Below, piece by piece: positions 40,921 through 64,000 of a stretch of 64,000 nt of DNA. The notes under the pieces were generated by a model that made no database searches, was not told the DNA's origin, and was given only the letters and a program-made list of their open reading frames with translations. The position numbers and the translations under genes were made by a program. Each line of letters opens with the position of its first letter. Position 1 is the stretch's first letter. This DNA is from an uncultured delta proteobacterium (GTDB taxonomy: Bacteria; Desulfobacterota; Binatia; UBA9968). The stretch is from NCBI GenBank assembly GCA_963728565.1, contig CAVSLC010000002.1, positions 32,001 through 96,000 on the forward strand, in the 5' to 3' direction.

Positions 40921-40975
40921 ATTCGTAAGAAGGCAGCCCGCAATCTGCTATTTGTTATGAGATCGGCCATCATCA

Positions 40976-42782: not shown

Positions 42783-42870
42783 GCACCGTGGATCGTGCTT
42801 GCCACAGCTCTTAGCGCCGCAGAATCGCCCCCAGTAAGCTTTCCGCTCAACCTAGCAAACTTTATTCAGG

Positions 42871-47388: not shown

Positions 47389-47596
47389 CCTGTAAAGCAC
47401 TGACTGTTGTTGAAAGCTTCTGTGCTTCGATATTGCCTTGTTTAGAGGAGTTCGCTCTGTGAAACGACGGCGCTGCAGTAGAGAGGATAGTTCCTCGTAC
47501 ATAAAAACCTTTCTTCAGTTACAATCTCTCATTTGAATATGGTATGGAAATGAGGCAGCACAATCCTCACAAAATCAAAGGACCATCCAAGCACTA

Positions 47597-48535
47597 ATGC
47601 CAACTCATGTCGTCATCACCGGCGCCGCCGGCTATTTGGGATCGGTTTTGTGCGAGCATTTGCTCGCGGCTGGATATCGAGTGACCGCAGCGGATGGGCT
47701 CATTTATCGCCAAAGAAGCTTGTTTCATCTCTGCGCCAGTCCTCAGTTTGATTTCATCGTCGGAGATGCGCGCGATGAGCAGTTGATGCGCCGGCTGGTT
47801 AAAGATGCGGACGTGCTTATTCCTCTGGCGGCGATCGTCGGCGCGCCGGCATGCGATCGCGATCCATGGCTGGCTCGTTCGGTCAACCTTGAAGCCATTC
47901 GACTGCTTGCGCGTTTGCGCAGCAACGATCAGTTGATCGTCTATCCAACCACCAACAGCGGCTATGGCACCAAATCGGGAGATGTCTTTTGTACCGAGGA
48001 CACTCCACTCGAGCCGATTTCGCTTTATGGACAAACCAAAACCGATGCCGAAGCGGAGATCCTGGAAAGGACCAATACGGTCACGCTCCGCCTTGCAACG
48101 GTTTTCGGCATGTCGCCTCGCATGCGTCTTGATCTGCTGGTCAATCACTTTGTCTATGCCGCCGTCACGGACGGTTATATTGTGATCTTCGAAAAAGATT
48201 TCAAGCGAAATTACATCCATATACGCGACGTCGCGGATTGTTTTATTCATTGCATCGAAAACAGCAAGAAAATGGCGGGCCGGCCGTATAACGCCGGGCT
48301 CGATAGCGCCAATCTTTCAAAAGAAGCGCTGGCTTTAAAGATTAAAGAATACGTGCCTAACTTTTACATCCACTTCGGTCAGGTGGGAACCGATCCCGAT
48401 AAGCGCAATTACATCGTCTCGAACCAACGCCTGCGGGATGCGGGCTTCGAGGCCAAGCGCTCATTAGACTCAGGTATCCAGGAGTTACTGAAGGGGTATC
48501 GCATGATGGGCCGCGCTGAGTTCGCTAATATTTAG
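47597..48535 (+). CDS. NAD-dependent nucleotide-sugar epimerase/dehydratase/reductase (extended SDR)
   Basis: TGAAGYLG, LAAIVGAPAC, YGQTK, RLATVFG.SPRMRLDL. Confidence 0.92.
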   Translation: MPTHVVITGAAGYLGSVLCEHLLAAGYRVTAADGLIYRQRSLFHLCASPQFDFIVGDARDEQLMRRLVKDADVLIPLAAIVGAPACDRDPWLARSVNLEAIRLLARLRSNDQLIVYPTTNSGYGTKSGDVFCTEDTPLEPISLYGQTKTDAEAEILERTNTVTLRLATVFGMSPRMRLDLLVNHFVYAAVTDGYIVIFEKDFKRNYIHIRDVADCFIHCIENSKKMAGRPYNAGLDSANLSKEALALKIKEYVPNFYIHFGQVGTDPDKRNYIVSNQRLRDAGFEAKRSLDSGIQELLKGYRMMGRAEFANI

Positions 48536-48566
48536 ATTTTGGTTTAAGGGCTGACGAGAAATCGTA

Positions 48567-49319
48567 GTGGTGCAGGAAGTCAGCGCTTTTTCAGATCTCA
48601 GCGTGGCAGTGCTCGCAGGTGGATTAGGAACACGGTTGCGTCCGGTGGTCTCGGATCGGCCAAAAGCACTGGCGGAGATTCATGGACGCCCTTTTTTGCA
48701 ATATTTGTTGGACCAGTTATCAAACGCAGGATCTTCTCGAGTTGTGTTATGTACCGGACATCTGGGAGAACAGATCGAGCAAACATTTGGCAAAAGATAT
48801 CGAAAATTGCAGATTTCATATTCCCGGGAAACGCGGCCTCTAGGCACGGGCGGCGCTCTGCGATTGGCTTTGCCGTATCTTCTGTCCGATCCTGTTCTGG
48901 TCATGAACGGAGACTCGTTCTGCGCCACGGATTTGAGGAGCTTGTGGGCTTGGCATTGTAACCGCGGTTCCCAAGCGACGATGTTGTTGGCCGAGGTGCC
49001 GAACACAGAGCGTTACGGCTCGGTAAAGATTGATTCTGACGGCGCGGTGACCCAATTTGTCGAAAAAAAACAAGGCGGTTCAGGGTCGATTAACGCCGGC
49101 GTGTATTTGCTTAGCCGTCAGGTTATCCGCTCGATCGCCGAAGGTACAGTTGTTTCACTGGAACATGACGTTTTCCCCAGCCTGATGAACCACGGGCTTT
49201 ATGGTTATCAGGAGCGGGGACGTTTTCTCGATATCGGCACGCCGGAGGATTTTGCTGCCGCCGAACAATTTTTTGCGGCGATCAATGAACGTGAAACGGC
49301 GGTTTGTAGTACTCGATAG
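48567..49319 (+). CDS. sugar-1-phosphate nucleotidyltransferase, HddC-like (heptose-1-P guanylyltransferase)
   Basis: LAGGLGTRLR..PK, LGTGGA, NGDS, FVEK, INAGVY, FLDIGTPED; adjacent to HddA and GmhB. Confidence 0.88.
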   Translation: MVQEVSAFSDLSVAVLAGGLGTRLRPVVSDRPKALAEIHGRPFLQYLLDQLSNAGSSRVVLCTGHLGEQIEQTFGKRYRKLQISYSRETRPLGTGGALRLALPYLLSDPVLVMNGDSFCATDLRSLWAWHCNRGSQATMLLAEVPNTERYGSVKIDSDGAVTQFVEKKQGGSGSINAGVYLLSRQVIRSIAEGTVVSLEHDVFPSLMNHGLYGYQERGRFLDIGTPEDFAAAEQFFAAINERETAVCSTR

Positions 49320-49849
49320 GGATGGCACAATCATCGAAGAGGTGTCTTACCTGTCGGATCCGAAACAGATTGCGCTGATTCCCGGGGCGGGCAAGGCGCT
49401 CCGGGATCTCGTGTGCCATGGGCTTCGGGCTGGTTGTCATTACCAATCAATCGGCGGTCGGACGGGGATATTTTGATGAAGCGCAGTTGACGCGGATTCA
49501 TGACAGGTTTTTAGAGATGCTGCGTGCTGAAGAGATAACTCTCGATGGTCTCTATTTTTGCCCGCATACTCCTCAAGACCAATGTTTCTGCCGTAAACCG
49601 CGCACTGGATTAATCCAAAAGGCATCGGAAGATTTGAACTTTGATTTGTCAGGCAGCATTGTTATTGGTGACAAGTTGAGCGATATCGAGATGGGTTGCC
49701 GGGTTGGAGCTTTGACGATGCTGGTACGCACGGGCTATGGGGCTCAAGTAGCTTCTGAGCAGAAGGTTGCGGCGGATTACATCGTCGACGATTTGCCCGC
49801 AGCCGTGGAAGTCATCGACAGGATCTTTAGAAAGGTGCGTGATCAATGA
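49285..49849 (+). CDS. gmhB: heptose-1,7-bisphosphate phosphatase (HAD IIIA), frameshift near 49412
   Basis: LDRDGTI, then VITNQS, CPH..CFCRKP, IGDKLSD in the next frame. Confidence 0.88.
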
Positions 49850-50919
49850 TCATTAGCAGGACGCCATTTCGTATTTCTTTCTTTGGTGGTGGCACCGATT
49901 ACCCTGCATGGTACCGCGACCACGGCGGCACGGTGCTGGGCGCAACCATCGACAAATACTGCTATCTCACCTGCCGTTATCTTCCGCCGTTTTTTAAACA
50001 TAGGATTCGCGTTGTCTATTCGCAGATTGAAAATTGCCAGATGGTCGATGAAATCGCTCATCCCGCCGTGCGTGAAGTGCTGCGTTACTTGCAAATTGAT
50101 CGAGGCGTGGAGATTCACCACGATGGTGACCTTCCGGCTCGGAGCGGCATGGGCTCGAGTTCTGCCTTCACGGTGGGTTTGTTGCACGCCCTGTACGCTC
50201 TCAAGGGACAGATGCCGACCAAGCGACAACTGGCGGCGGAAAGCATTCAGATCGAACAGGAGATGATCAAGGAAACCGTCGGTTCGCAGGATCAGGTTTT
50301 GGCGGCATTTGGCGGATTCAATCATGTGGTTTTTTCCCAAGACGGTGAAATCACCGTCAAACCGATTACGTTATCAGGGGATCGCCTGCGCGAGTTAAGC
50401 TCTCATCTAATGCTTTTCTATACAGGAATAGAGCGCACCGCCTCGGATGTTGCCGGCAGTTATGTTGCCGATGTCGACGGAAAAAGAAGCCAATTGCGCA
50501 TCATGAAAGGTCTGGTCGAAGAAAGCCTCGCAGTCCTAAATAATGGGCGGGATATAACTGCTTTTGGCACTCTCCTGGACGAGGGATGGCAAGCCAAGCG
50601 CAGCCTGAGCGCGAGAGTTTCAAACAGCTACGTCGATGAGCTCTATGCGCACGCGATCGCGAACGGCGCTCTCGGGGGAAAGCTGCTGGGCGCCGGTGGC
50701 GGAGGTTTCATGCTCCTGTTTGTGCCTCCGGGCAAGCAGAATCAAGTCAAAGAGGCGCTCAAGAAGCTTATATCGGTCCCGTTTCATTTTGATTTCTCTG
50801 GGAGTCAAATCATTTTCTACGATCACGAAAAGGATTACTCGGCCGAAGAAAAAATTCGCGATTCACGGGAATACGATTTCATCGGCGAACTGAATGACCG
50901 ATTGGACAGAGATTTGTAG
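49846..50919 (+). CDS. hddA: GHMP kinase, D-glycero-alpha-D-manno-heptose-7-phosphate kinase-like
   Basis: SRTPFRISFFGGGTD, PARSGMGSS, GSQDQ, GKLLGAGGGG. Confidence 0.85.
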   Translation: MIISRTPFRISFFGGGTDYPAWYRDHGGTVLGATIDKYCYLTCRYLPPFFKHRIRVVYSQIENCQMVDEIAHPAVREVLRYLQIDRGVEIHHDGDLPARSGMGSSSAFTVGLLHALYALKGQMPTKRQLAAESIQIEQEMIKETVGSQDQVLAAFGGFNHVVFSQDGEITVKPITLSGDRLRELSSHLMLFYTGIERTASDVAGSYVADVDGKRSQLRIMKGLVEESLAVLNNGRDITAFGTLLDEGWQAKRSLSARVSNSYVDELYAHAIANGALGGKLLGAGGGGFMLLFVPPGKQNQVKEALKKLISVPFHFDFSGSQIIFYDHEKDYSAEEKIRDSREYDFIGELNDRLDRDL

Positions 50920-50967
50920 ACGGAACGAGCGACAGGCTTGGCTCCCGCGATTTCTATTCGTTAATAA

Positions 50968-51904
50968 ATGGAGAAGGACGCGAGAATCTTTGTTGCGGAC
51001 GATCATGGACTCGATCGGAGAGGCCATCAGAATACGGTTGAGAGCGGACGGCTATGAGAATCTTCTCGGCGATCCTGGAAGACCTTCGTTAATCGATGCC
51101 CGAGAGGTCGAAGCTTTTTTCTCACGGACTATGCCCGAATACGTTTTCGTCGTGGGCGGCAAGTCGGGCGGCATCGGCGCTAATCAAAAGCTCCCGGCGG
51201 ATCTGATGCTGAATAACCTGCTTGTGGATTGCCATGTCCTAGATAATGCGTACCGTTGCGGCGCCAAAAAATTGCTTTATATGGGCAGCTCCTGCTGCTA
51301 CCCGCGAGCTTGCTTGCAACCGATGCAAGTTTCGTCTTTGATGACGGGAGTTCTGGAGCCTACTAACGAGGCTTATGCGACCGCCAAGCTTGCCGGGATT
51401 AAATTGAGTCAAGCATATCGGCAGCAACATGGCATCGATATGATCAGCGCCATTCCCGCCAATGTCTTTGGACCCGGCGATGACTTCGGCGTCGAGGACT
51501 CGCATGTGATTGCCGCCTTGATGGTGAAAATGCATCAGGCAAAGCTTTCCCAAGCGGATAATGTCGAAGTCTGGGGATCGGGTTCGCCGCGCCGGGAATT
51601 TATTTATGTCGCCGACGTCGCTGATGCAGCCATTTTCTTGATGCACCATTATAGCAGCTCAGTGCCGATCAATCTGGGAAGCGGCTCAGACGCGTCAATC
51701 AGGGAGATTGCCGAGCTGATTAAAGAAGTAGTCGGGTACTCCGGAGAGCTACGCTTTGACCCGAAGAAGCCAGACGGTATGCCGTTGAAGTCGCTGGACT
51801 CCAGCGAGCTTTTCGCTCTTGGGTGGCAGCCAAAGATATCTCTGCGTTTAGGTCTGGAAAAAACCTACCGGTGGTACCTCGAGACCTGTCACAGGAATAT
51901 ATAA
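50968..51904 (+). CDS. GDP-L-fucose synthase/ColC-like epimerase-reductase, frameshift near 51014
   Basis: true N-terminus MEKDARIFVA at 50968; GGIGAN, GSSCCYP, LEPTNEAYATAK, NVFGPGD, WGSGSPRREF, KPDG. Confidence 0.88.
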
Positions 51905-51908
51905 CCTC

Positions 51909-52847
51909 ATGAACGAACGTATTTTTAGATCTCTATATCGGATCCGCCGTGTGGAGGAAGAAATTGCCCGGATTTATCCCACCGATAAGATCAAGAGTCC
52001 CGTGCACCTCTCAATCGGTCAGGAGTGGATAGCCGTGGGTGTGTGCGAGGCTTTGCGGCCCGACGACATCGTCTTTGGCAGTTATCGAAGTCACGCGTAC
52101 TATTTGGCTAAAGGCGGCGACTTAAAGAAAATGTTCGCTGAGCTTTACGGCAAGGCTACAGGGTGCGCGAAAGGAAAGGGTGGGTCGATGCACCTCGTTG
52201 ATGTCGCTCACGGCGTCATGGGAGCCTCGGCAGTCGTCGGAACGACTATTCCAAATGCTGTGGGCTATGCGTACGCCATGAAACTACAGAAGAGAAACAA
52301 TGTCGTCGTGAGTTTTTTTGGCGATGGAGCGACCGAGGAGGGGGTTTTTTACGAGAGCCTTAATTTCGCCGCTCTGAAGGAGCTCCCGGTGATTTTTGTC
52401 TGCGAGAATAATTTTTATGCTATCCATACTCATATATCGCTTCGTCAGAAAACCCCGAATCCGTGCGATAAAGCCAAAGCCCAAGGCATCGTAGCCGAGC
52501 AGATCGGCGATGGCGATACGCGGCGGCTCTATGACCGGATTAATGCCGCGGCGGACCTCATGCGCGCCGGCCGGAGTGGGCCGTGTTTTTTTGAATGTCT
52601 TACATATCGCTGGAAGGAACACGTCGGGCCGAACGAAGATTTCGATTTGGGTTACCGGAGCCGGCAAGAAGCGAGCCCGTGGCTCGAACGAGACGCGTTG
52701 CCGCGGATTGAATGTCTTCTGTCAGCGGAAGCTTGTAGCCGCTTGAAAACCGAAGTGGAAGAGGAAATCAGTGCGGCCATCCGCTTTGCGGAGGAAAGCC
52801 CGTATCCACAACCGGAGGAGTTATATATGGATGTGATCGGGGACTAA
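51909..52847 (+). CDS. TPP-dependent dehydrogenase E1 alpha-like subunit
   Basis: HLSIGQE, GKGGSMH, TPP motif GDGA..ENN, TYRWKEHVG. Confidence 0.94.
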   Translation: MNERIFRSLYRIRRVEEEIARIYPTDKIKSPVHLSIGQEWIAVGVCEALRPDDIVFGSYRSHAYYLAKGGDLKKMFAELYGKATGCAKGKGGSMHLVDVAHGVMGASAVVGTTIPNAVGYAYAMKLQKRNNVVVSFFGDGATEEGVFYESLNFAALKELPVIFVCENNFYAIHTHISLRQKTPNPCDKAKAQGIVAEQIGDGDTRRLYDRINAAADLMRAGRSGPCFFECLTYRWKEHVGPNEDFDLGYRSRQEASPWLERDALPRIECLLSAEACSRLKTEVEEEISAAIRFAEESPYPQPEELYMDVIGD

Positions 52848-53894
52848 ATGGAACGCACTCTGTCGTATATCGATGCGATTCGCGAGGCCACGGATCAGGA
52901 GATGGCGCGAGACGGATCCGTGGTGATTTTTGGTCTCGATGTTGACGATCCCAAGGCAATTCAAGGAACCACGCGCGGGCTGCTTGAAAAGTATGGCCCG
53001 CAGCGTGTCTTCGGAACTCCACTGTCCGAGGACGCCATGACCGGAGTCGCCATTGGAATGGCTTTAGCGGGACTGCGGCCGATTCACGTTCACATCCGCA
53101 TGGATTTCATGCTGCTGGCGATGAATCAATTGGTCAACATTGCGGCCAAGAGTCGCTACATGTACGGCGGTCAAGTTCATGTGCCGATGGTTGTTCGTTG
53201 CATGATCGGCAAGAGTTGGGGGCAGGGCGCTCAGCACTCCCAGGGATTACACTCGCTCTTCATGCACATTCCCGGTCTGAAAGTGGTTGCGCCGGCCAAT
53301 CCTTATGACGCGAAGGGATGCTTGATCCAGGCGATCCGCGATGGTGATCCGGTCATCTATGTTGAGCATCGGATTCTCCATTTCCAAAAAGGCGTGGTTC
53401 CTGAATCCGAATACGCGGTTGCAGCTGGCAAAGCCCGCGTTTTAGCGCAAGGCCAAGATATTACACTCGTCGGAATTTCGTACATGGTATTGGAATGTCT
53501 GAGAGCGCGTGATTACCTTGCATCGACCGGCATCGATGCGGAAGTGATCGATCCCGTCTGGTTGAGCCCGCTTGACATCGACACCATCGTAAAATCCGCG
53601 CGAAAAACCGGCCGGCTGTGTGTCGTCGACAACGGCTGGACAGTCTGCGGTGCGGGCGCGGAAATAGTCAGCCAGGTAATCGAAAGACTGCAACACGACA
53701 GGCATGTGGCTGTCCAACGCTTGGGCTATGCTCCGGTGACCTGCCCGCCGACTCCGGTCCTGGAGGAGCTCTATTATCCAAACGCACGCACCATCGCATC
53801 CACGGCCTATGATCTGGTCAAAGGAGGCAAAAACGCTTGGTTGCCGCAGGAACGAAAAGACCTTGTCGAGTTCGAATTTCGCGGACCATTTTAA
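52848..53894 (+). CDS. TPP-dependent dehydrogenase E1 beta-like subunit
   Basis: TPLSED, GLRP, GAQHSQ, PGLKVV, transketolase C-terminal domain. Confidence 0.94.
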   Translation: MERTLSYIDAIREATDQEMARDGSVVIFGLDVDDPKAIQGTTRGLLEKYGPQRVFGTPLSEDAMTGVAIGMALAGLRPIHVHIRMDFMLLAMNQLVNIAAKSRYMYGGQVHVPMVVRCMIGKSWGQGAQHSQGLHSLFMHIPGLKVVAPANPYDAKGCLIQAIRDGDPVIYVEHRILHFQKGVVPESEYAVAAGKARVLAQGQDITLVGISYMVLECLRARDYLASTGIDAEVIDPVWLSPLDIDTIVKSARKTGRLCVVDNGWTVCGAGAEIVSQVIERLQHDRHVAVQRLGYAPVTCPPTPVLEELYYPNARTIASTAYDLVKGGKNAWLPQERKDLVEFEFRGPF

Positions 53895-53901
53895 TCCAAT
53901 C

Positions 53902-55113
53902 ATGAATACTATCCAAAATCTCGCTTGGCCACTAATGAAGAATAATCTCGCCAAGGAGGATTTCGCCAAGGTTGTCGAGCTGCTGCATCAGCAGGACCCG
54001 ATCTTGACGCAATCGGATCACGTCAAGGAGTTTGAAAAAGAATGGTCGGCTTGGCTGGGTGTCAAACACAGCGTCTTTGTAAATTCCGGTTCCTCGGCAA
54101 ATCTCTTGACCATGTGCGCGCTTAAAGAGCGCTATGGCTCGGGAGAAATCATCGTGCCGCCGTTGACTTGGGTGTCCGATATTGCTTCGGTGATCCAGTC
54201 CGGGTTTAAACCGGTATTCGTCGACATCGATCGCCGCACGCTTGGAATGGACAACCAACAAATCCGCGAAAAAATTTCGCCCGATACCAAAGCCGTATTC
54301 ATGACTCACGTGTTAGGGTTCAACGCCTTGCAAAAGTCGCTTCTGGCCGAGCTTGAAGACCGTGGTATTCCGCTTGTGGAAGACGTTTGTGAATCACATG
54401 GAGCGACGTGCGAGGGGAAAAAACTGGGAACTTTCGGGCTGATGTCCAACTTCTCCTTCTACTATGCGCATCATATGAGCACCATCGAGGGTGGTATGAT
54501 TTGCACCAACAACTCCGATCTGTATGAAATCCTGCGCATGCTTCGTTCCCATGGTATGGTACGAGAGTCGACTTCGTCCGAGCTTAAGGAGAGTTTCTAT
54601 CGCAACTACCCGGATCTGAACCCCGACTTCATATTTGCATTCCCGGCATACAATGTTCGAAGCACGGAAATAAACGCTGTCATCGGCCGTTCTCAGCTCA
54701 AGCGGCTCGATGCCAACAACAGAATAAGATCGGAGAATTTAAACTTGTTTCTCGACCATCTAGACTCTGAGAAGTACCAGACCGATTTTGTCACGGCGGG
54801 AAGCTGCAATTATGCGTTCACGTTGGTGCTCAATCGCGCTGATCCGGTATTATGTGAAAACGTGATGCAAATGCTGCGGCGCTACAACGTAGAATTCCGC
54901 CGCGGCACCTCGGGCGGCGGAAATCAATTGCGGCAGCCTTATCTAAGAAGAATAATGGGCGAGCGCGAGTTTGAAAAGTATCCAAACGTCGATCATGTTC
55001 ATTTCTACGGCTTCTACATAGGTAATTATCCGGATCTCGAGCGAGAAAAGATCCTTCAGTTATGTTCTCTCTTGAACAGCGTCTCCGGTGAGGAAGCACG
55101 TTATGTCTCGTAA
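53902..55113 (+). CDS. DegT/DnrJ-fold PLP enzyme, ColD-like nucleotide-sugar 3-dehydratase
   Basis: VNSGSSANL, EDVCESHGA, SFYYAHHMSTIEGG (His at the usual Schiff-base Lys position), LRSHG. Confidence 0.85.
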   Translation: MNTIQNLAWPLMKNNLAKEDFAKVVELLHQQDPILTQSDHVKEFEKEWSAWLGVKHSVFVNSGSSANLLTMCALKERYGSGEIIVPPLTWVSDIASVIQSGFKPVFVDIDRRTLGMDNQQIREKISPDTKAVFMTHVLGFNALQKSLLAELEDRGIPLVEDVCESHGATCEGKKLGTFGLMSNFSFYYAHHMSTIEGGMICTNNSDLYEILRMLRSHGMVRESTSSELKESFYRNYPDLNPDFIFAFPAYNVRSTEINAVIGRSQLKRLDANNRIRSENLNLFLDHLDSEKYQTDFVTAGSCNYAFTLVLNRADPVLCENVMQMLRRYNVEFRRGTSGGGNQLRQPYLRRIMGEREFEKYPNVDHVHFYGFYIGNYPDLEREKILQLCSLLNSVSGEEARYVS

Positions 55114-56617: not shown

Positions 56618-56628
56618 ACGCTTGGTGC

Positions 56629-57264
56629 GTGCGACGCGATTCTGTGCGAAAGCGACGATCTGCTGATCCGACGGGTGCGAAATCTCAGCAGCCGGAGCAA
56701 AAAAAGCGAAAACTTGTCTGCGAGAACAGCCAGTTCAATATCTTCTTTGACGAACTGACTTCCCAAGGCCGCACGACCATCACAGATTATCTGGTGGTTG
56801 CGCCAAAACGTGTCGCCTCTAATCTTGTCACCGGAGTGGCGATTCTGCCGATCGTTGACGGCAAAATCGGCCTAATTCGCATTTACCGTCATCCCATTGG
56901 GCAATACTCATGGGAGATTCCGCGAGGTTTTATCGATCGGCAAGAGGTGTCTGCGAGCGCAGCGGGTCGAGAACTAAAGGAAGAGACGGGACTCGATTGC
57001 AAGCCCGAAGCGATTCGATCGTTGGGCTTTATTACTCCGGATGGGGGAATTTTGGCGGCCAGAGTGCAGCTGTTTGCGGCGATGAATTGTGTAAAGGAAC
57101 GGGAGTATGCACCCGCGGAAATCGGTCATCGAGAGCTCCGATTCTTCGATATTCAACAAGTGGAAGAAATGATTTTTCGTGCTGAGGTGCAGGATCCGTC
57201 AACAGTCATAGCATTCTTTATGTACCGTCGATTTGAGAAACAGGTTCTGGACGGCCCAGTGTGA
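56629..57264 (+). CDS. Nudix hydrolase (ADP-ribose/NDP-sugar pyrophosphatase-like)
   Basis: complete Nudix box GFIDRQEVSASAAGRELKEETGL. Confidence 0.92.
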   Translation: MRRDSVRKRRSADPTGAKSQQPEQKKRKLVCENSQFNIFFDELTSQGRTTITDYLVVAPKRVASNLVTGVAILPIVDGKIGLIRIYRHPIGQYSWEIPRGFIDRQEVSASAAGRELKEETGLDCKPEAIRSLGFITPDGGILAARVQLFAAMNCVKEREYAPAEIGHRELRFFDIQQVEEMIFRAEVQDPSTVIAFFMYRRFEKQVLDGPV

Positions 57265-57962
57265 AAGTGACTCTGCTAGTTCTGGCGCTGAATGAAATCG
57301 ACGGTATGAAGGCGATCATGCCGCGGGTAAAAAGAGAGTGGTATGACCAGATCATCATTTTAGACGGCGGCTCCACCGATGGAACCATCGAGTATGCTAA
57401 AGAACAGGGATATTTCGTCTACGTCCAGAAAAGGCGCGGATTTCGCCACGCCTATACCGAAGTACTGCCATATATTGAAGGGGAGGTGATCGTGACCTTC
57501 AGCCCCGACGGCAACTCGGTTCCGGAGCGTATTCCTGCATTGATCGAGAAAATGAAAGAAGGATACGACATGGTGATTGGCTCCCGTTACCTGGACGGGG
57601 CCAAGAGTGATGATGATGACGTGATTACGGCTTTCGGCAATTGGCTGTTTACCAAAACGATCAACGTCCTGCATGGCGGATGCTATACCGATTCGATGGT
57701 GATCTTCCGCGCTTACAAAACTCAATTGATCTACGATCTGGAACTCCACACCGATGAGCCCTACGCCACCGCTGAGAAGCTTTTCCATACGACGATCAGT
57801 TGGGAGCCATTACTGTCAGTCAGGGCGGCTAAGAGAAATCTAAAGATAGCCGAAATCCCGGCCGACGAGCCACCACGCGTAGGTGGAACGAGGAAGCTCC
57901 AGGTGCTGAGATGGGGTGGAGCGTATTATTATCAGTTCATTCGAGAAAAGTTTTATTGGTAG
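57261..57962 (+). CDS. glycosyltransferase family 2, Dpm1-like
   Basis: ALNE, DGGSTDGT, SPDG, DMVIGSRY, YTD; no TM segments. Confidence 0.92.
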   Translation: MKVTLLVLALNEIDGMKAIMPRVKREWYDQIIILDGGSTDGTIEYAKEQGYFVYVQKRRGFRHAYTEVLPYIEGEVIVTFSPDGNSVPERIPALIEKMKEGYDMVIGSRYLDGAKSDDDDVITAFGNWLFTKTINVLHGGCYTDSMVIFRAYKTQLIYDLELHTDEPYATAEKLFHTTISWEPLLSVRAAKRNLKIAEIPADEPPRVGGTRKLQVLRWGGAYYYQFIREKFYW

Positions 57963-58058
57963 TAAGAAATATGAGCGCAACCAGCTAAGGCAGCTTCAGG
58001 GTGGCACGGTAACTTCACTTAGAGAAAAGACCCATTCATATAACGTACAGGTGTGCCA

Positions 58059-59057
58059 ATGACGATTTCGAGAGTTTTGATTACCGGTATAGCCGGATCA
58101 GCTGGGAGTTATTTAGCTGAGTATATCGGCGAGCATCAACCACAAGTTGAGATTCACGGCCTAGCAGGTTTTCGAACTCCGAGAGAAAATCTAGAAGGGG
58201 TAAAGGATAAAGTCTGTGTTCACGATGGAGACCTTATGGAGTTTCCTTCGCTTGTTGCGATCTTAGAAAAAGTGAAGCCCGACGGGATATTCCATCTCGC
58301 AGCTTACGCGAACGTTCGCGCATCTTTTACCGCGCCTTCAACTATCTTACGGAACAACATTCTCGGTACCTGCAACCTTTTTGAAGCAATTAAAATGTCG
58401 AGGCAAAACCCACTGATCCAGCTATGCAGCACATCGGAAGTCTACGGACAGGTGGAGGCGAAAGACATTCCCATCAAAGAAGATGCCCCGTTTCGGCCTG
58501 CAAGTCCGTACGCCGTCTCCAAGGTCGCTCAGGATATGTTGGGATGGACGTACTTCTCTGCTTATAAGATGCAGATCGTTCGTACCCGAATGTTTGCCTA
58601 TATCAATCCTCGCCGTCCTGACCTTTTTGCTACATCATTCGCAAAACAAATCGCCTGGATCGAACGGGGGCTCCAAACTGAGTTGCTGCACGGCAATCTT
58701 GATTCGGTTCGCACATTTCTGGATGTGAAAGATGCGATGCGCGCCTATTGGTTAGCTTTGGTTCACTGTGATCCTGGTGAGGTTTATAACATCGGCAGCA
58801 CGAATGTTTCGACCGTGGGGGAGGTCCTGGAACGGCTGATCGAGCTGAGCACAGTCCCTATACCCAGGCGATTGCTGCCGGAACTTCTCCGGCCCGCAGA
58901 TGTAACTTTACAAGTTCCCTGCATCGAAAAATTTGTTGCTGCGACTGGTTGGAAATCCGAATATGACTTCGATGAAAGCTTGCGGCACCTTATGGCTTAT
59001 TGGCGGAAACAAGCAGCGAAGACTGTCATGTCGTACTCTGAATCGATAGAATCGTAA
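58059..59057 (+). CDS. GDP-sugar 4,6-dehydratase (Gmd/DmhA-like)
   Basis: ITGIAGSAGSYLAE, FHLAA, STSEVYG, SPYAVSK, GNLDSVR, RPAD. Confidence 0.88.
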   Translation: MTISRVLITGIAGSAGSYLAEYIGEHQPQVEIHGLAGFRTPRENLEGVKDKVCVHDGDLMEFPSLVAILEKVKPDGIFHLAAYANVRASFTAPSTILRNNILGTCNLFEAIKMSRQNPLIQLCSTSEVYGQVEAKDIPIKEDAPFRPASPYAVSKVAQDMLGWTYFSAYKMQIVRTRMFAYINPRRPDLFATSFAKQIAWIERGLQTELLHGNLDSVRTFLDVKDAMRAYWLALVHCDPGEVYNIGSTNVSTVGEVLERLIELSTVPIPRRLLPELLRPADVTLQVPCIEKFVAATGWKSEYDFDESLRHLMAYWRKQAAKTVMSYSESIES

Positions 59058-59272
59058 GCTCCTTTGACAAAAGCGGAATTCTGCCAGCCCCACGCTACTT
59101 CATATCTTTTCGGATCAATCCTGCCTTAGATTTTGACCTATTCACGGGTTGCGATAACGATCATCGCAAATGTTTGCGCCAGAGCGAACTTCGATCAACT
59201 CCATTGCGATCGTTATATGATTCAAATGGATCCGGATGAACCTGAGCAGTTGAAAGACCAAAACCGGAAGGT

Positions 59273-61645
59273 ATGGACTTTATGAGTTTTGGCTTGCGTC
59301 AATCTATGATTTTACTGTCCGTTTGGATCGCGGTCAGTACTGGCTTTTTCTTTTGGCGTTTACCGGTCGCGTTGATCTGGTGCGATACTGTAGTAGTCAG
59401 TAACAACTTGTACGAGGAACCAAATCCAATAATGTGGCGAAATCCAGGTACACTTACATGGATCCTTCACCACTCTTTTTACGACGTCGGATCGGACGGA
59501 TACCGACCATTGAGTAGGGTTATTTTTTGGGCTGGTACAGCATTTTTTAGCGACTTAGACAGCAATTCTACTCTGTACTTTGCGATCGTGGGTATGCTGT
59601 TTGGTACACTAGCTGTATGTTTTTTCTTGGTCGCTCGTCGTTTTCTGCTTTCCGAAACAGCGGCACTGTTCGCTGTGCTCCTTTTCTTGTTCTCTACTCC
59701 TATCGTCACCGGTGCGTGGAACGTCATTTGTGGAATACAGGCGCTTGTTCCGCTGATGATATGCTTAGGACTGTTGTGTTATTGGAGGGTTGCAGAGTCG
59801 TCGAACTACAAAAGCCGGTACATGGCAGGACTTTGCGCAATCTTGTTTATAGGGCCATGGTTCCGTGAATTCATCGGACTTCTCCCATTGCTCATCATCT
59901 TTCTTGAAGCGCAAAGAGTACGGCGGCCAACAATTATCACGATTGTCGCCGGTTTGTTTTTTATCCACTCTATCTTTCCAGCTGCCATCGTAAAGTTGAC
60001 GGTCTATCCAGATCTGCCAGTTTACCCGGTATTTGCCATGGGTCATTTGGGTCACCAAGTCGCCGCTAGTATAGCTGATGACAGGGTGTTTTCAATTTCG
60101 CGAGTTTTTTCGGAGTTAAAATGGGAAACCGTTTATCATTTTTTGACTCTCTATCCATCCTTACTATTTATCCTCTCATTGATCGCCTTTTTACTTCCGA
60201 CTATGCGGCTAGTGCCTACTCTGATTTCCTTCTGGGTACACATTTCTACCGGACATCGCAGGTTCATTTCCTTTTCGTCAGTAATAGGAATGCTCCCATC
60301 GCTCCTGTTCCTTCTGGCCGGCATCTGCGGTTACTTTGTGACCGTTAGCCAGGAGTGGCTTCTTCTTTGGATTTTCGCCGGATTTGCGTCTTTCGCTGTC
60401 TACCGAAACGTTTTTGTCGCTTTTTGGTTTTTGTTGTTTCTGATGCCTTTTCTCAGAATCTTCACCGAGCAGGTGCACTTGGCCTACGCACTATTACCAG
60501 CCTCAATCATCATCGCCGCTGCTGTCGAAGAATTGTGGCGGTCTGTTCAATATCGTGGGTTTTGGTTCACAACCGCTCGCTACATGCTGTGTTCAGTAGT
60601 GGCGCTGGCCACCGCCGATCATTTGCTCAATCCGTATAATAGTTACCGCGTCGTACAGTCGATCAATAATGGAATCGTGGAAATGGCGGGTTGGTTTAGA
60701 TCAAAAGTACCCGCTGGATCGATTGTGATTACTAATGTTTTACATGGCGAAGACATTCGATTCTTCTCCAACAACCACATAAAAGTGTTTTGGACGGTCC
60801 GTGCGGGCATTCCTCGTGATAAAGATGCAGTGGATGAACCGAGCACGTTGGAACAGCTGCTCCAAGAGAATTACGCTAAGACGGAGGTCTATTTTCTAGA
60901 CGTCGACTTCGACTATGCTTTAGAAAAGGTCGATTATCATTCCCATAAATATGTGCGAAATCGGAGTGTAGACATGAGTGAAATTGGTCGCGTTCATACA
61001 ACGCAGGTTCGTTATCCCTTCATTGATCCTCTAAAAAATTGGGTTCCTAGAGCCTATGTCGCTTTCTTGGGTGCTCCCGATTTGGAGAATGATTTTTATC
61101 GGGGACCCGCCCAAAATGGTGCTCGTTTCATGCGCGAGGTCTATGCGGAATACTACCTCTATAAAGTGTCCAGCACTAACGTTTACACGTTGAACCCCAC
61201 CGGAACGCCTCGACTCCTTCAAGAAGATTATCGTGGATTCAATATTCTTGGTCTGAATGGCCGGTTCTTTGCGATTCCGAAGTCCGAAGGTGCTTTTGAG
61301 CTGCAAAAAATAGAGGACAAATTTTACTCCAAGAGTTTTGTGGCAGACAAATACGACGAGATTCTCCGCCACATCGACGCCACTCTGCCTGGGGAGGGCG
61401 AGCCGATGCGCTTTGATGTATGCGCTTCCTCATCCCTGCGCCAGATCAAAGCGGCTACTCTGATCGAAGAGGGATACCGCCGGTACAACATAGTTGGATA
61501 CGAAGGCCGGCTTTATGCAATTCCTCAGGGCGAAGGTAGTTTTGAGATAGCGCGAATTCGAACAGGCGATTACAGCCGCTGGTTTACTGGGTGTTCACTA
61601 GAATCTGTGAAACAACAGCTGGACCAATCTCTGAATCGTAAGTGA
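59273..61645 (+). CDS. multi-TM membrane protein, GT-C-like, with two C-terminal 57 aa repeats
   Basis: 790 aa; N-terminal TM then loop with YRPL, many TM helices, soluble C-terminal region with tandem repeat. Confidence 0.7.
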   Translation: MDFMSFGLRQSMILLSVWIAVSTGFFFWRLPVALIWCDTVVVSNNLYEEPNPIMWRNPGTLTWILHHSFYDVGSDGYRPLSRVIFWAGTAFFSDLDSNSTLYFAIVGMLFGTLAVCFFLVARRFLLSETAALFAVLLFLFSTPIVTGAWNVICGIQALVPLMICLGLLCYWRVAESSNYKSRYMAGLCAILFIGPWFREFIGLLPLLIIFLEAQRVRRPTIITIVAGLFFIHSIFPAAIVKLTVYPDLPVYPVFAMGHLGHQVAASIADDRVFSISRVFSELKWETVYHFLTLYPSLLFILSLIAFLLPTMRLVPTLISFWVHISTGHRRFISFSSVIGMLPSLLFLLAGICGYFVTVSQEWLLLWIFAGFASFAVYRNVFVAFWFLLFLMPFLRIFTEQVHLAYALLPASIIIAAAVEELWRSVQYRGFWFTTARYMLCSVVALATADHLLNPYNSYRVVQSINNGIVEMAGWFRSKVPAGSIVITNVLHGEDIRFFSNNHIKVFWTVRAGIPRDKDAVDEPSTLEQLLQENYAKTEVYFLDVDFDYALEKVDYHSHKYVRNRSVDMSEIGRVHTTQVRYPFIDPLKNWVPRAYVAFLGAPDLENDFYRGPAQNGARFMREVYAEYYLYKVSSTNVYTLNPTGTPRLLQEDYRGFNILGLNGRFFAIPKSEGAFELQKIEDKFYSKSFVADKYDEILRHIDATLPGEGEPMRFDVCASSSLRQIKAATLIEEGYRRYNIVGYEGRLYAIPQGEGSFEIARIRTGDYSRWFTGCSLESVKQQLDQSLNRK

Positions 61646-63662
61646 GCGATCAGGTGGTCACAAGTCTGCCGTCAGGTTTTGAGATGCCTTATAAGCCCAA
61701 TGAAAACTCTTTAAACATGAAAGACGTATTCGTCATCTGCGCGCTGATTCTTTACTTCGCCTGTTTGCTAACTTTCTCGAGCTTCTTCTACCTTGCCACT
61801 GAAGATTATGAAGCGATAGCTGCCGTGGATTTTATCATGCAGGGCCGTCTTATTGGGGAGCCTACCGGCTGGCCCTATACTCCGCTCGCAGGCTACTTAT
61901 TTTATTTACACTCCATCGCTTTCGGCGAAAGTTTGTTGGGGTTTCGACTGCTAACAGGTTTTTTGCTTCTGACATCCGTGGTTCCTCTTTACCTTACCAT
62001 TCGCGCTTTGGCTGATCCCTCTATGGCTTTGGCGTTAACACTTTTGTCATTTTCGCTAAGCACTTTCCCGCATCCGCGGCTCGAGTATTTCATCGAAGGA
62101 GCTATCGCCTCGTTTGCGATCTATTTGGGCGTAAAGCACGTACAAACGAACCGAAAAGTATATGTTTACGGATGTGCTGTTTTCGCGGTTGTCGCTTTTG
62201 CATCAAGAGGGTCATCCCAATAGTTCAGCGCTGCTTCTCCTTTTGCCGATCGGCTTGGTCTCCGTACCTTGGATTATCGAGGGCAAACAGTCCTGGAAAG
62301 CAGCAATTACCCGGCTGGCGAGTCGAGGCCGCTTCTGGGTGACACAGATGCGGTCGAACATCTACGCCTCTATTTGCATGGGCCTTTTGACGATCGCGAG
62401 CTTCGTATGGATTTCACAATTTCTCAGAGAAATCGTGTACAGGCGTTTGTTCGTTGAGTACACTGATTTGAACGATCTAAGTTCCACCTGGATGAAATCG
62501 AATAGCGGTGGCTGGTCATGGACACTGCTACTTCTCCTGGCAAGCATTTATGTTGCAATTCGTTGGAAGGGCAAAATAAAACAATCTGTGGTGTTGGTCT
62601 TACGCAGATCGGTAAGGACATTCGTTCCGTTTTTTATCGTTGGCGGCTTCGATTCTCATCATTGCGATTTGGGCCGGTTACTCTTTCACTGATCTGATGT
62701 TTTTTATTTTTCCCACAGACATTATCGCAGACCATAAAGCGGTGGGAAGAATTGGCGCCCGAGCAAGAGGCGTGCTTCCGGTATTTTTAATTGTTACTGC
62801 AGCGACATTGTATTGTTACCTCAACGATCGAATGCGGGCGGACAAAGCCACGATCAGTCTGTTTCTTCTGTTATTAGTTCCGGCGACTTTCGCCCGATTC
62901 TTTCCGACTTATAACATGCTCTACCTCGGGGTATTTCCTGTGGCGGTGTTCCTAGCTTGTGTATTGCCGTGCGTTCTAGCACAGAACCAGACATTTTGTC
63001 GGCGCCTCAACGCGACGATGATAGTTTTCTTTATTATTTACTCTTTAGCGTCGAACTATCTTCTCTTCATAAGAACACAAGTCGCAGACCTCAATGATGA
63101 CCGTTTAATAAGGCTCGAAACCGGGCCTTTAGCGGGCATTTTCGTCGAAAGAGACGTATTTAAGCTCTTCGAGGACGTTCGAGCACGCTTGAATTTGCAC
63201 GGGGATGCTAAGCACGAAACATATGCTTTTCTCTCCTCCCGTTACGTTAAGTTTATTCCATTAGTGTATGGATGGAGGGATCCACTGGCCGGTCAGAATT
63301 TGATGATTCAATTAGGAAAAATATGGTCCTACGATGATTTGATCAAAATCAAGGGGGTGGAATCAGACAACATTTTCGATTGGGCGGGTTTAATTTATCG
63401 CTGGCGCGAAACGGCTGTGGTTCGCTTGGAGGAGTCGCAAGTAAGGCTAATTGTAATGAGCCTATATGACGAAACCGTTCTTGAAGAAGTGTTGGAACCT
63501 TCAGCGGATCCATTGAGGGAATACCTGCGGTTAAATTTTAGCATCAGCGACGCCATCGAACCGACGATGACTGCCTACAGGCGGTCGAGTTTTCCAGAGG
63601 GAGCGGTCATTCTAATACGCAACACTCACCAGCCAGATCTTCCTACGGATCGGGCGCAATAA
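61642..63662 (+). CDS. multi-TM membrane protein, GT-C (ArnT/PMT)-like, split by two frameshifts (~62213, ~62635)
   Basis: TM1 followed by ATEDY acidic loop, YTPLAGY..FGESLLGFRLL; three consecutive overlapping ORFs read as one protein. Confidence 0.65.
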
Positions 63663-63680
63663 GCGCCCGGTTGCTTGTAC

Positions 63681-64000
63681 ATGGAAGTGAAAAGAGTTTT
63701 CTTCGCTGGTCATCTCCGGCCATTCAAGCACGTTGGGCGACATCCTCAATTTGAGCATATTCACAATCCGCCGCCCGGTTATGAATTTGTTACCAGCGGC
63801 CAGACCAGCTCTGCAAAATACCGCACTATTAAATCGCTATCAGGTCTTTGCCGTGACGCTCTTGCAAACGGATCGACAGTTAAGGATTTATCGAGATTCA
63901 TTCGGTCCCGTTCGCTCCGAGCGCAGCTCTCTTTCCCCAATTCCGCTTTGGCATTCCTTCCGAGTACGCCTTTTATTCTTGGGCAAGCACCGTGGGTGAT
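63681..64000 (+). CDS. start of a further gene, possibly a glycosyltransferase; truncated by window end
   Basis: ATG 63681 open to the end: MEVKRVFFAGH..HNPPPGYEFV..FLPSTPFILGQAPWV; not in the ORF track. Confidence 0.55.
   Translation, partial: MEVKRVFFAGHLRPFKHVGRHPQFEHIHNPPPGYEFVTSGQTSSAKYRTIKSLSGLCRDALANGSTVKDLSRFIRSRSLRAQLSFPNSALAFLPSTPFILGQAPWV

Follow-up and report, generated by a model that had tools for sequence, protein, structure and literature searches.

A gene cluster that is a candidate pathway for a branched, GDP-heptose-derived sugar was analyzed at the end of a 64,000-nt stretch from an uncultured delta proteobacterium (Desulfobacterota; Binatia; UBA9968). This stretch, herein referred to as the window, corresponds to positions 32,001 to 96,000 of contig CAVSLC010000002.1 in the GenBank assembly GCA_963728565.1, a metagenome-assembled genome (MAG) of 28 contigs that is 80.55% complete and 5.84% contaminated. 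From position 47597 to the window end, all large open reading frames (ORFs) in the ORF list are on the + strand. This run includes about 15 genes, 14 of them inside the window and one, for a GT4 glycosyltransferase, crossing the window end (Table 1). By ORF coordinates, the distances between neighboring genes range from -35 to +215 nt, and most are of 12 nt or less. An earlier prediction, made from the sequence alone and herein referred to as the original prediction, had named 14 co-oriented and tightly coupled genes. All 14 were recovered in place on the + strand, and the tight coupling was confirmed by these distances. The run does start at position 47597 as predicted, but it does not end at position 64000, since the GT4 gene (L001:1675-2919) continues for 919 nt beyond the window. 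Families were assigned to the window proteins by Pfam and NCBIfam profile searches and by sequence searches of the PDB. All the Pfam assignments of the run members exceed the cut-off; the two membrane proteins have no match.

Table 1. Genes of the cluster; positions refer to the window.
Predicted product	Position	Strand	Family, motif or nearest model
Short-chain dehydrogenase/reductase (SDR), probable GDP-heptose C4-dehydrogenase (Cj1427-like)	47597-48535	+	PF01370
NTP_transferase, sugar-1-phosphate guanylyltransferase-like (HddC/ManC-like)	48567-49319	+	PF00483
GmhB-like HAD-IIIA heptose bisphosphate phosphatase, frame-broken	49285-49849	+	NF006506, DxDGT
GHMP kinase, HddA-like	49846-50919	+	PF00288, PF08544
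Fcl-like GDP-4-keto-sugar epimerase/reductase, frame-broken	50968-51904	+	GDP-L-fucose synthase model, PDB 1e6u
Thiamine pyrophosphate (TPP)-dependent E1 alpha-like subunit	51909-52847	+	PF00676, 199 bits
E1 beta-like subunit	52848-53894	+	PF02779, PF02780
ColD-like pyridoxamine phosphate (PMP)-dependent sugar 3-dehydratase (His type)	53809-55113, start perhaps ~53899	+	PF01041
B12-binding radical S-adenosylmethionine (SAM) enzyme	55088-56617	+	PF02310, PF04055
Nudix hydrolase, NDP-sugar pyrophosphatase type	56629-57264	+	PF00293
Soluble GT2, probable polyprenyl-phosphate sugar synthase	57261-57962	+	PF00535
Gmd/Rmd-like SDR (GDP-heptose 4,6-dehydratase-like or 4-reductase)	58053-59057	+	PF16363, 209 bits
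GT-C fold glycosyltransferase, 790 aa	59273-61645	+	predicted fold
Second GT-C fold membrane protein, three frames here	61642-63662	+	predicted fold of homolog
GT4 glycosyltransferase, 414 aa, 5' part in window	63675-64000, ends at equivalent of 64919	+	PF13692, PF00534

Relatives of the radical SAM enzyme are encoded in at least 534 stretches (of 599 candidates) from a species-representative genome collection. The best 80 of these at least 534 stretches were examined; with 60-97% identity in the radical SAM protein, this set is biased towards close relatives and includes many short contigs. Those of the 80 loci having at least 8 kb on both sides, 40 in total, are herein referred to as full-flank loci. 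Genes were counted by tblastn with the window proteins (E < 1e-10, at least half of the query aligned), as the ORF calls in high-GC loci included antisense shadow ORFs. By record titles, the 80 loci span about 13 phyla: Binatia, other Desulfobacterota, Cyanobacteria, Acidobacteriota, Omnitrophota, Poribacteria, Chloroflexota, Nitrospirae, Bacteroidota, Planctomycetota, Elusimicrobia, Verrucomicrobiota, and Myxococcales.

The ColD-like enzyme of the DegT family, herein referred to as DegT, is encoded in 69 of the 80 loci. It is followed by E1 beta (63 loci), E1 alpha (58), the kinase (53), the Fcl-like protein (48), the C4-dehydrogenase (46), and the nucleotidyltransferase (36). The remaining genes were found less frequently: GT2 in 23, GmhB in 17, Gmd-like in 15, Nudix in 5, and GT-C in 3 loci. 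Among the 40 full-flank loci, DegT was found in 39, E1 beta in 36 (38 if either E1 beta or a split transketolase is counted), E1 alpha in 35, the kinase in 34, the Fcl-like gene in 32, the C4-dehydrogenase in 30, and the nucleotidyltransferase in 26. A SIS gene was found in 13 of these loci, GmhB and GT2 in 12 each, the Gmd-like gene in 10, GT-C in 2, and Nudix in none. The gene order C4-dehydrogenase, nucleotidyltransferase, GmhB, SIS, kinase, Fcl, E1 alpha, E1 beta, DegT, radical SAM is common to MAGs of Binatia, cyanobacteria, Chloroflexota, and Nitrospirae. Of 41 genomes of relatives, 10 also contain a close copy of the cluster, whether full or partial, and two fragments are present in G008.

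Nine genes, for the C4-dehydrogenase, nucleotidyltransferase, GmhB, kinase, Fcl-like protein, E1 alpha, E1 beta, DegT, and radical SAM enzyme, form a core that travels together. Its arrangement is far beyond chance, since the radical SAM gene has the same neighbors in the majority of the 80 loci. The original prediction of a single co-conserved pathway agrees with these data, the core being kept in most loci (DegT in 39 and the TPP enzyme in 38 of the 40). The Gmd-like gene, which the original prediction included in the pathway, is accessory, as indicated by its presence in only 10 of the full-flank loci.

The cluster was also found on plasmids of cultured strains. Plasmid pDMC1 of Solidesulfovibrio magneticus RS-1 carries, at about 22.5-39.7 kb of its record and in this order, genes for two GT2 proteins, the radical SAM enzyme, Nudix hydrolase, kinase, E1 alpha, E1 beta, Fcl, DegT, SDR, nucleotidyltransferase, a hypothetical protein, a phospholipid carrier-dependent glycosyltransferase, two hypothetical proteins, lhgO, and SIS. 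The pDMC1 proteins are 30-66% identical to those of the window. On plasmid AZO_p6 of Azospirillum lipoferum 4B the genes form two blocks about 20 kb apart, one with Fcl, radical SAM, kinase, and Nudix and the other with SDR, E1 alpha, E1 beta, and DegT. In the plasmid record, the cluster occupies about 20-24 kb and 43-48 kb. Genes annotated as S-methyl-5-thioribose-1-phosphate isomerase (mtnA) and methylthioadenosine phosphorylase are located between the two halves (L104:3745-6010, record 40744-43009), and their products may salvage 5'-deoxyadenosine from the radical SAM enzyme. On plasmid p5 of A. argentinense Az39, the radical SAM gene is accompanied by genes for the SDR, the kinase, and a split transketolase.

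Relatives of the radical SAM enzyme, 38-54% identical, were further found in 48 IMG/VR contigs (L105-L152). Their neighbors in these viral contigs include the C4-dehydrogenase (28 contigs with the window query or 30 with a viral query), a short TPP-binding protein (32), DegT (19), the Gmd-like protein (12), and the L-2-hydroxyglutarate oxidase LhgO (8). A reduced module including glycosyltransferases was also observed, for example, at L110:5967-11253. A T4-type portal was detected in one of five viral contigs searched, a contig of 147 kb. The genes retained by viruses point to an invariant kernel made of the C4-dehydrogenase, the TPP enzyme, and the radical SAM enzyme, and phage-borne tailoring of heptose may alter the host surface or the virion.

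Three core proteins resemble enzymes of heptose activation. In NCBIfam, the nucleotidyltransferase scores 189.4 bits with the mannose-1-phosphate guanylyltransferase model and 148.4 bits with HddC (cut-off 300), both below the cut-offs. The C-terminal part of GmhB scores 140.1 bits with NF006506 (cut-off 178), and the kinase 146.9 bits with the HddA model (cut-off 600). HddA, GmhB, and HddC are the best or near-best models for these proteins, which probably work like members of the three families but are divergent, their membership being unproven. A gene for a GmhA-like SIS protein was found in 15 of the 80 related loci, with a representative scoring 189.5 bits to gmhA (cut-off 209), as well as in the S. 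magneticus RS-1 cluster. By homology, the sugar appears to derive from a heptose, as indicated by the set of kinase, GmhB, and guanylyltransferase, by GmhA in related loci, and by similarities to the PDB entries 6vo6 and 7us5. It also appears to be linked to GDP, since the nearest characterized relatives of four enzymes (6vo6, ColD, Fcl, and GDP-heptose 4,6-dehydratase) act on GDP-sugars.

The leading gene encodes an SDR with a YxxxK motif at residue 144. Residues 3-311 of its 312 match the PDB entries 6vo6 and 6vo8 (E 1.7e-105, 355.9 bits), and the next PDB match has an E-value of only 5.8e-19. We take 6vo6 to be Cj1427 of Campylobacter jejuni, the GDP-heptose C4-dehydrogenase, an identity that was not confirmed by text search. 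The SDR is probably a GDP-heptose C4-dehydrogenase; the original prediction had placed it in the right superfamily, and the generic label used there gives way to a close relationship with 6vo6. For a Cj1427-like enzyme, the 6-OH would be kept on the route to the 4-keto sugar, which argues for a 3-deoxy and not a 3,6-dideoxy sugar. The predicted unusual GDP-linked deoxy sugar, probably C-branched and derived from heptose, is retained on this evidence, and its 3,6-dideoxy variant is not.

In C. jejuni, NADH bound to Cj1427 is described as being re-oxidized by 2-oxoglutarate, yielding L-2-hydroxyglutarate (PMC10680097). A gene for LhgO is located near the cluster in 8 of the 80 genome loci by tblastn (7 by ORF clustering), as it is in the 8 viral loci mentioned above; its representative has a score of 532 bits (cut-off 299). 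Examples are located at L100:27459-28661 (pDMC1 of RS-1), L083:1176-2396, and L110:5967-7058. In the window's own genome, LhgO is encoded elsewhere (G000:C20:137691-138872). Homology indicates that C4 is oxidized, probably with 2-oxoglutarate recycling the bound NADH. Co-location of LhgO fits the recycling of L-2-hydroxyglutarate from a Cj1427-type dehydrogenase and provides independent, if indirect, support for this reaction.

The best PDB match of DegT is ColD (2gms, E 4.7e-53). The stretch FYYAHHMST of DegT aligns with FYSHHIAT of 2gms, so that a His occupies the catalytic position of ColD, presumably His188; the ColD mutant entry 3b8x has an Asn at this position. The His type assigned to this protein in the original prediction is therefore upheld. 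A ColD-type His was found in 64 of 68 aligned DegT rows, the window included, and the four Lys-type rows are extra genes located away from the core. The homologs have about 404 aa, which points to a start near position 53899. Removal of the 3-OH by this ColD-like enzyme is indicated by homology. In vitro, the C3-dehydratase of C. jejuni accepts the product of Cj1427, and this dehydratase together with C4-reductases is described as yielding GDP-3-deoxy-heptoses from it (PMC10680097).

The E1 alpha-like subunit scores 281.7 bits with the model for pyruvate dehydrogenase (PDH) E1 alpha, which is below the cut-off of 393.85, and has a TPP motif (GDG-x26-NN) at residue 138. No lipoyl or E3 families were found among the cluster genes with Pfam and NCBIfam. 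A split transketolase is encoded in six related loci, in several of them at the position held by the E1 pair elsewhere. This positional exchange argues that TPP-dependent transfer of a two-carbon unit is the conserved function. For two-carbon branches of sugars, only two mechanisms are described, to the knowledge of the authors of PMC4425429: that of AviB1/AviB2, with the homologs Pau11/Pau12, and that of YerE. According to this source, AviB1/AviB2 is PDH-like, YerE is a TPP-dependent flavoprotein, and both attack the 4-keto carbon (PMC4425429); the YerE/YerF scheme has been generalized (PMC9306805). By analogy with these precedents, the E1-like pair would add a two-carbon unit at the 4-keto carbon.

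Two further SDRs are candidates for the final reduction. The Fcl-like protein scores 362.8 bits with the GDP-L-fucose synthase model (cut-off 500). Its nearest PDB entry is the GDP-fucose synthase 1e6u (E 1.3e-76), versus an E-value of 1.6e-47 for 7m13, which we take to be among the C. jejuni C4-reductases. The Fcl-like protein keeps the SSC and SHV stretches, presumably those with the epimerase Cys and His. The Gmd-like SDR matches both 7us5, a GDP-D-glycero-D-manno-heptose 4,6-dehydratase (E 8.3e-54), and the Rmd entry 2pk3 (E 1.3e-50). In three loci (L019, L020, and L028), a homolog of this Gmd/Rmd-like SDR, 64-67% identical, is located at the position of the Fcl-like gene. The Fcl-like and Gmd/Rmd-like SDRs may be alternative final reductases giving different stereoisomers.

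The protein encoded at 55088-56617 has the class B architecture, with an N-terminal B12-binding domain (PF02310, 61.8 bits, cut-off 32.1) and a radical SAM core (PF04055, 63.9 bits, cut-off 29.5) containing the CxxxCxxC motif at residue 232 (CPFHCSFC). It scores 166.8 of the 577.6 bits required for HpnJ (TIGR03471), and so is not a member of this family, and 149.7 of 481 bits for BchE. Its best PDB match is the diol dehydratase AprD4 (E 3.4e-14, 55.6 bits). The 120 best database clusters are 71-94% identical to the window protein, and with the A. lipoferum member as query, 7,916 clusters with E <= 1e-100 were found among 8,000 candidates scored. In the ESM Atlas, only generic radical SAM clusters were found for this protein, two of them mostly viral. 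The scores are far under every curated cut-off, and the protein thus represents a subfamily of its own, which is very large and has no name.

B12 radical SAM enzymes most commonly act as methylases, and BchE is a cyclase. HpnJ was inferred genetically to form a cyclopentitol (PMC9092360). C-methylation of the sugar has somewhat less than an even chance, and another reaction, such as diol dehydration, stands at the same level; C-C ring closure is unlikely. The extra C-methyl group included in the original prediction was a default guess and is not borne out by the nearest families, HpnJ, BchE, and AprD4, which are not methylases. The Nudix hydrolase encoded next to the radical SAM enzyme has ADP-ribose and ADP-sugar pyrophosphatases as PDB matches. 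In a motif scan, ORFs with a Nudix box were detected for 13 of the 80 loci, and such genes are present in the RS-1 and A. lipoferum clusters. Compared with 5 of 80 loci by tblastn, this number indicates that tblastn undercounts Nudix genes.

The GT2 protein has no transmembrane segment. Its best NCBIfam models are AglJ (90.3 of 325 bits) and dolichyl-phosphate hexose transferase (68.2 of 375), both below the cut-off, and all four of its PDB matches are Dol-P-Man synthase or ArnC (best E 4.4e-09). It is probably a polyprenyl-phosphate sugar synthase. For the two membrane proteins, no match was found in Pfam or NCBIfam even at E <= 1. The 790-aa protein has about 12 transmembrane helices followed by a C-terminal soluble domain. 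Its AlphaFold2 model, built with 36 homologs, has a mean confidence (pLDDT) of 86.2, and all 21 Foldseek matches of this model at E <= 0.001 are GT-C enzymes, among them STT3, ALG9, ALG12, PglB, DPY19, AftA, and AglB. D38 (in 37 sequences), Y77-R78-P79, and R198-E199 are invariant in this protein.

The second membrane protein (window 61642-63662; L096:1483-3456) belongs to a family with 17 representatives in 1.84 billion proteins and no profile model. The model of its homolog from the close relative G005 (pLDDT 75) also yielded only GT-C enzymes among its 14 Foldseek matches at E <= 0.001, with STT3, AglB, DPY19, ArnT, and PglB at the top. The TM-scores of the GT-C matches are modest (0.3-0.53). 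The possibility that the second membrane gene is a paralog of the first was rejected, as blastx revealed only the tail of the first gene. The models support both membrane proteins being GT-C fold glycosyltransferases of families having no Pfam model. The GT-C assignment of the original prediction fails by sequence, with no Pfam or NCBIfam match, and holds by predicted fold for both proteins. The delivery leg, composed of GT2, the two GT-C proteins, and GT4, is well supported for the window but lineage-specific. The phospholipid carrier-dependent glycosyltransferase annotated in the RS-1 cluster also speaks for a lipid carrier. Delivery via a lipid carrier, as proposed originally, accordingly applies to the window, with its GT2 and two GT-C genes, and not as a general rule, GT2 being found in 12 and GT-C in 2 of the 40 full-flank loci.

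Three genes of the run are interrupted in this assembly by four 1-nt insertions, located at 49410-49413 (GmhB), ~51013 (Fcl-like), and ~62208 and ~62644 (second GT-C). None of the four has a counterpart in relatives or in contigs of an independent soil DNA run (X1), one of which covers 59202-62691 with 3,488 nt and 34 letter differences from the window. The extra base of GmhB is also absent from the RNA-library contigs X15 and X16, and that of the Fcl-like gene from the X4, X15, and X16 contigs; the X15/X16 contigs leave 59071-64000 uncovered, and the X4 contigs have holes there. As a result of the break in GmhB, its N-terminal part with the DxDGT motif is in another frame than its C-terminal part; an intact gene for 188 aa is present in L092 and L018. 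The true start of the Fcl-like gene is ATG 50968, which is hidden by the insertion and revealed by the relatives. In G005, G007, and G014, one uninterrupted frame encodes the second GT-C, with a length of 662-721 aa. This comparison and the tally of 41 genomes include the unpublished genome G012, on which no claim depends. The four frame breaks are probably assembly indels, with genes intact in the population, and they suggest that the MAG may carry indel errors in further genes.

Taken as one operon-like pathway, the cluster would convert GDP-heptose by C4 oxidation, C3 deoxygenation, two-carbon branching, radical SAM tailoring, and reduction, with delivery by a lipid carrier in the window. 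We consider this reading slightly more probable than all others together. The pathway would begin with heptose activation, for which a GmhA encoded elsewhere in the genome or lost from the MAG would supply heptose 7-phosphate. The Cj1427-like SDR would then oxidize C4 of GDP-D-glycero-D-manno-heptose, with bound NADH re-oxidized by 2-oxoglutarate, and the ColD-like PMP enzyme would remove the 3-OH. These reactions, and the fold or family of each enzyme, are indicated by homology. E1 alpha/beta would decarboxylate a 2-oxo acid, pyruvate by default, and transfer a two-carbon unit to the 4-keto carbon. The radical SAM enzyme would act on an unactivated carbon, either in the branch or in the C6-C7 side chain, and final epimerization and/or reduction would be performed by the Fcl-like SDR or, in its place, by the Rmd-like SDR. 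In the window, the soluble GT2 would load the sugar onto polyprenyl phosphate, and, after flipping, the two GT-C transferases would transfer it to a periplasmic acceptor.

Several observations weigh against this reading. The PDB title of 6vo6 reads only 'putative sugar-nucleotide epimerase/dehydratease' and does not name Cj1427. The heptose-module proteins (HddA, HddC, and the GmhB part) all score under the NCBIfam equivalog cut-offs. GmhA was not found in the window's genome with TIGR00441 or by tblastn with the SIS proteins of related clusters, a result that, at 80.55% completeness of the MAG, does not show its absence. HpnJ, BchE, and AprD4 are the nearest relatives of the radical SAM enzyme; none of them is a methylase and none is close. 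GT2 and the 790-aa GT-C lie outside the conserved core. The resemblance of the Fcl-like protein to true 4-keto epimerase/reductases and its exchange with the Rmd/Gmd-like SDR suggest that the 4-keto group persists until the end, at odds with a branch at C4. The predicted C-branching is kept as probable, its position at C4 being weakened by these reductases. In the literature searched, no sugar of the proposed structure is tied to any carrier organism. The combination of a heptose C4-dehydrogenase, ColD-type dehydratase, E1-like carboligase, and B12 radical SAM enzyme was likewise not found in this literature, which left subscription journals and supplements mostly outside; the original statement that no characterized locus has the full combination stands for the literature covered.

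The conflict at C4 would disappear in a colitose-type route, in which the C4-dehydrogenase, the ColD-like enzyme, and the Fcl-like (or Rmd-like) enzyme would suffice to make a GDP-3-deoxy-heptose in three steps, analogous to Gmd, ColD, and ColC for colitose. The TPP and radical SAM enzymes would work on the C6-C7 diol, so that the chain would be lengthened rather than branched at C4. For example, an AprD4-like radical dehydration could create a new carbonyl, to which the E1-like enzyme would add two carbons. This explanation is possible but distinctly less probable than branching at C4. It accounts well for the close similarity of the Fcl-like protein to true Fcl with its retained SSC and SHV stretches, for the positional replacement by the Rmd/Gmd-like SDR in L019, L020, and L028, and for AprD4 being the solved structure most similar to the radical SAM enzyme, although at 55.6 bits this last similarity is weak. 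We know of no precedent for E1-like enzymes extending a sugar side chain, which counts against it. The C. jejuni enzymes do form GDP-3-deoxy-heptoses from the Cj1427 product in vitro (PMC10680097), in favor of such a route; both two-carbon mechanisms described, however, attack the 4-keto carbon (PMC4425429). In addition, viral contigs keep the triad of C4-dehydrogenase, radical SAM, and TPP enzymes where Fcl and DegT are mostly undetected.

Other explanations dispense with a single envelope-sugar pathway. The run could contain unrelated pathways side by side, namely a GDP-heptose module, a GDP-fucose/6-deoxyheptose pair, and a module of TPP, pyridoxal phosphate (PLP), and radical SAM enzymes. 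Each of these modules is known on its own, locus-to-locus variation is seen for the Gmd-like, Nudix, GT2, and GT-C genes, and the A. lipoferum 4B genes form two blocks about 20 kb apart. Against this, the nine core genes occur together in differing orders in about 13 phyla and on plasmids, and even the split A. lipoferum copy has every core family on one plasmid, which leaves such an assemblage very unlikely. A decaying, non-functional locus, suggested by the interruption of GmhB, the Fcl-like gene, and the second GT-C (at two sites), is hardly credible, given that these are single extra bases absent from relatives and X1 contigs, the first two also from X15/X16, and that the remaining genes are open and highly conserved. 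Scarcely any weight is given to a deoxysugar sub-cluster of an antibiotic or other secondary-metabolite pathway, comparable to those for avilamycin and paulomycin, even though the only E1-like sugar-branching enzymes described stem from such clusters (PMC4425429). The window cluster, which has LptD as its upstream neighbor and is followed downstream by GT4, peptidase, dockerin, and type II secretion genes, contains no scaffold genes, and these are also lacking in the annotated RS-1 and A. lipoferum regions. Moreover, the GT-C enzymes and polyprenyl-phosphate GT2 point to envelope glycans, and the cluster also occurs in T4-like phage contigs.

The favored pathway, with C4 branching of GDP-heptose, shares its logic with the capsular heptose pathways of C. 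jejuni, in which activation, C4 oxidation, C3 deoxygenation, and C4 reduction are carried out by the same enzyme families. For three window proteins, the solved structures nearest to them have heptose- or GDP-sugar-related names, and the conversion of 2-oxoglutarate to L-2-hydroxyglutarate is mirrored here by co-located LhgO. Unlike in the window, no TPP or radical SAM enzyme is present among the heptose modification enzymes listed for C. jejuni in the abstract of PMC10680097. Natural 3-deoxygenation in C. jejuni follows a 4,6-dehydratase, and the pairing of Cj1427 with a C3-dehydratase is restricted to in vitro reactions there (PMC10680097). Here, this pairing is the conserved one. The colitose pathway (Gmd, ColD, and ColC) also resembles the proposed one, with a His-type PMP 3-dehydratase acting on a GDP-4-keto sugar before an epimerase/reductase of the Fcl family. 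It differs in that the substrate here is probably a heptose, the 4-keto group would come from a dehydrogenase with the 6-OH kept, and TPP and radical SAM enzymes are added.

AviB1/AviB2 and Pau11/Pau12, compared by description and not by sequence, are like the window pair in being PDH-E1-like without E2/E3 and in being encoded near enzymes for (3-deoxy-)4-keto nucleotide sugars. Formation of yersiniose A by YerE/YerF likewise combines 3-deoxygenation, C4 branching, and reduction (PMC9306805). The substrates of these systems, however, are dTDP- or CDP-hexoses or sugars already attached, as part of the synthesis of Streptomyces antibiotics or the Yersinia O-antigen, whereas here a GDP-heptose, a B12 radical SAM partner, and a distribution among environmental Gram-negative phyla and phages are indicated. 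The radical SAM enzyme is like HpnJ, BchE, AprD4, and class B methylases in domain architecture and cluster motif. The delivery leg follows the DPMS/PMT, ArnC/ArnT, and GtrB/GtrC routes in using a soluble or peripheral GT2 before GT-C transferases, but its GT-C families have no Pfam model and the leg is not conserved with the core.

A candidate class of products is provided by caryose and caryophyllose from the lipopolysaccharide (LPS) of Burkholderia caryophylli, which are also 3-deoxy, C4-substituted higher sugars; a heptose plus two carbons fits their carbon count. For caryose, which is 4,8-cyclo-3,9-dideoxy-nonose, PMC9092360 describes the biosynthesis as unknown. Caryophyllose differs; its published explanation is a hexose to which a YerE-type enzyme adds a C6 acyl branch (PMC9306805). 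The radical SAM enzyme could join C7 to the acetyl carbonyl of a 4-C-acetyl-3-deoxy-heptose, giving a caryose-type cyclopentane-fused nonose (4,8-cyclo-3,9-dideoxy-nonose). This refinement is improbable, while being consistent with the carbon count of 7 + 2, the 3-deoxy step, the invariant triad of C4-dehydrogenase, TPP, and radical SAM enzymes, and the formation of carbocycles by HpnJ and BchE. No Burkholderia was found among the 120 best matches of the A. lipoferum radical SAM query; the B. caryophylli genome itself was not searched. Bradyrhizose was dropped as a relative, its proposed 11-gene cluster being centered on dTDP-glucose 4,6-dehydratase.

Upstream of the run, genes for LptD, a Mur-ligase-family protein, and TrpA are located. 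LptD (45067-47388) is directly upstream of the cluster in the window as well as in the related MAG loci L013, L015, and L017, and this adjacency is at most a positional hint that the product is destined for the outer membrane or LPS. Downstream of GT4 (L001:3750-7704), an M10-type metallopeptidase and two dockerin/FG-GAP repeat proteins are encoded, followed by a GT2-TPR protein and a type II secretion operon 3' of the repeat proteins. The repeat proteins have weak TcdB_toxin_midN labels in Pfam, with no single matched stretch passing alone. The G+C content, which is 0.51-0.54 in the core and reaches 0.615 in the region further upstream, drops to 0.47-0.48 across 58-64 kb; this drop fits a variable glycan-transfer part. 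In G005, nucleotide similarity to the window is lost past ~57366. The transfer leg (Gmd-like, GT-C, and GT4 genes) looks recently exchanged. Within 47570-57874, most of the core is covered by contigs that are 92-99% alike and come from two soil metatranscriptome libraries (X15 and X16) of a single study, and one contig of 2,883 nt spans five genes. These contigs are a weak hint that the cluster is expressed in soil, and relatives or DNA carry-over may explain them.

Tailoring of nucleotide sugars is itself known; not described in the literature searched is the combination of a 2-oxoglutarate-coupled C4-dehydrogenase, a PDH-E1-like carboligase, and a cobalamin radical SAM enzyme acting, as proposed, on a heptose. 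The cluster reaches well beyond one genome, being represented by at least 534 stretches, about 13 phyla, plasmids of cultured Azospirillum and Solidesulfovibrio, and, in reduced form, phage contigs, and the cultured carriers make the model testable. If the proposed pathway is correct, a higher-carbon branched (or carbocyclic) sugar would be common, though so far overlooked, in the envelopes of environmental bacteria. A substrate class could then be assigned to a very large unnamed radical SAM subfamily, and a donor to two GT-C families having no profile model. Should the caryose-type reading hold, the cluster would be the missing route to carbocyclic higher sugars, now known from the LPS of one plant pathogen, and such sugars would be widespread among soil and aquatic bacteria of many phyla, with T4-like phages making them as well.

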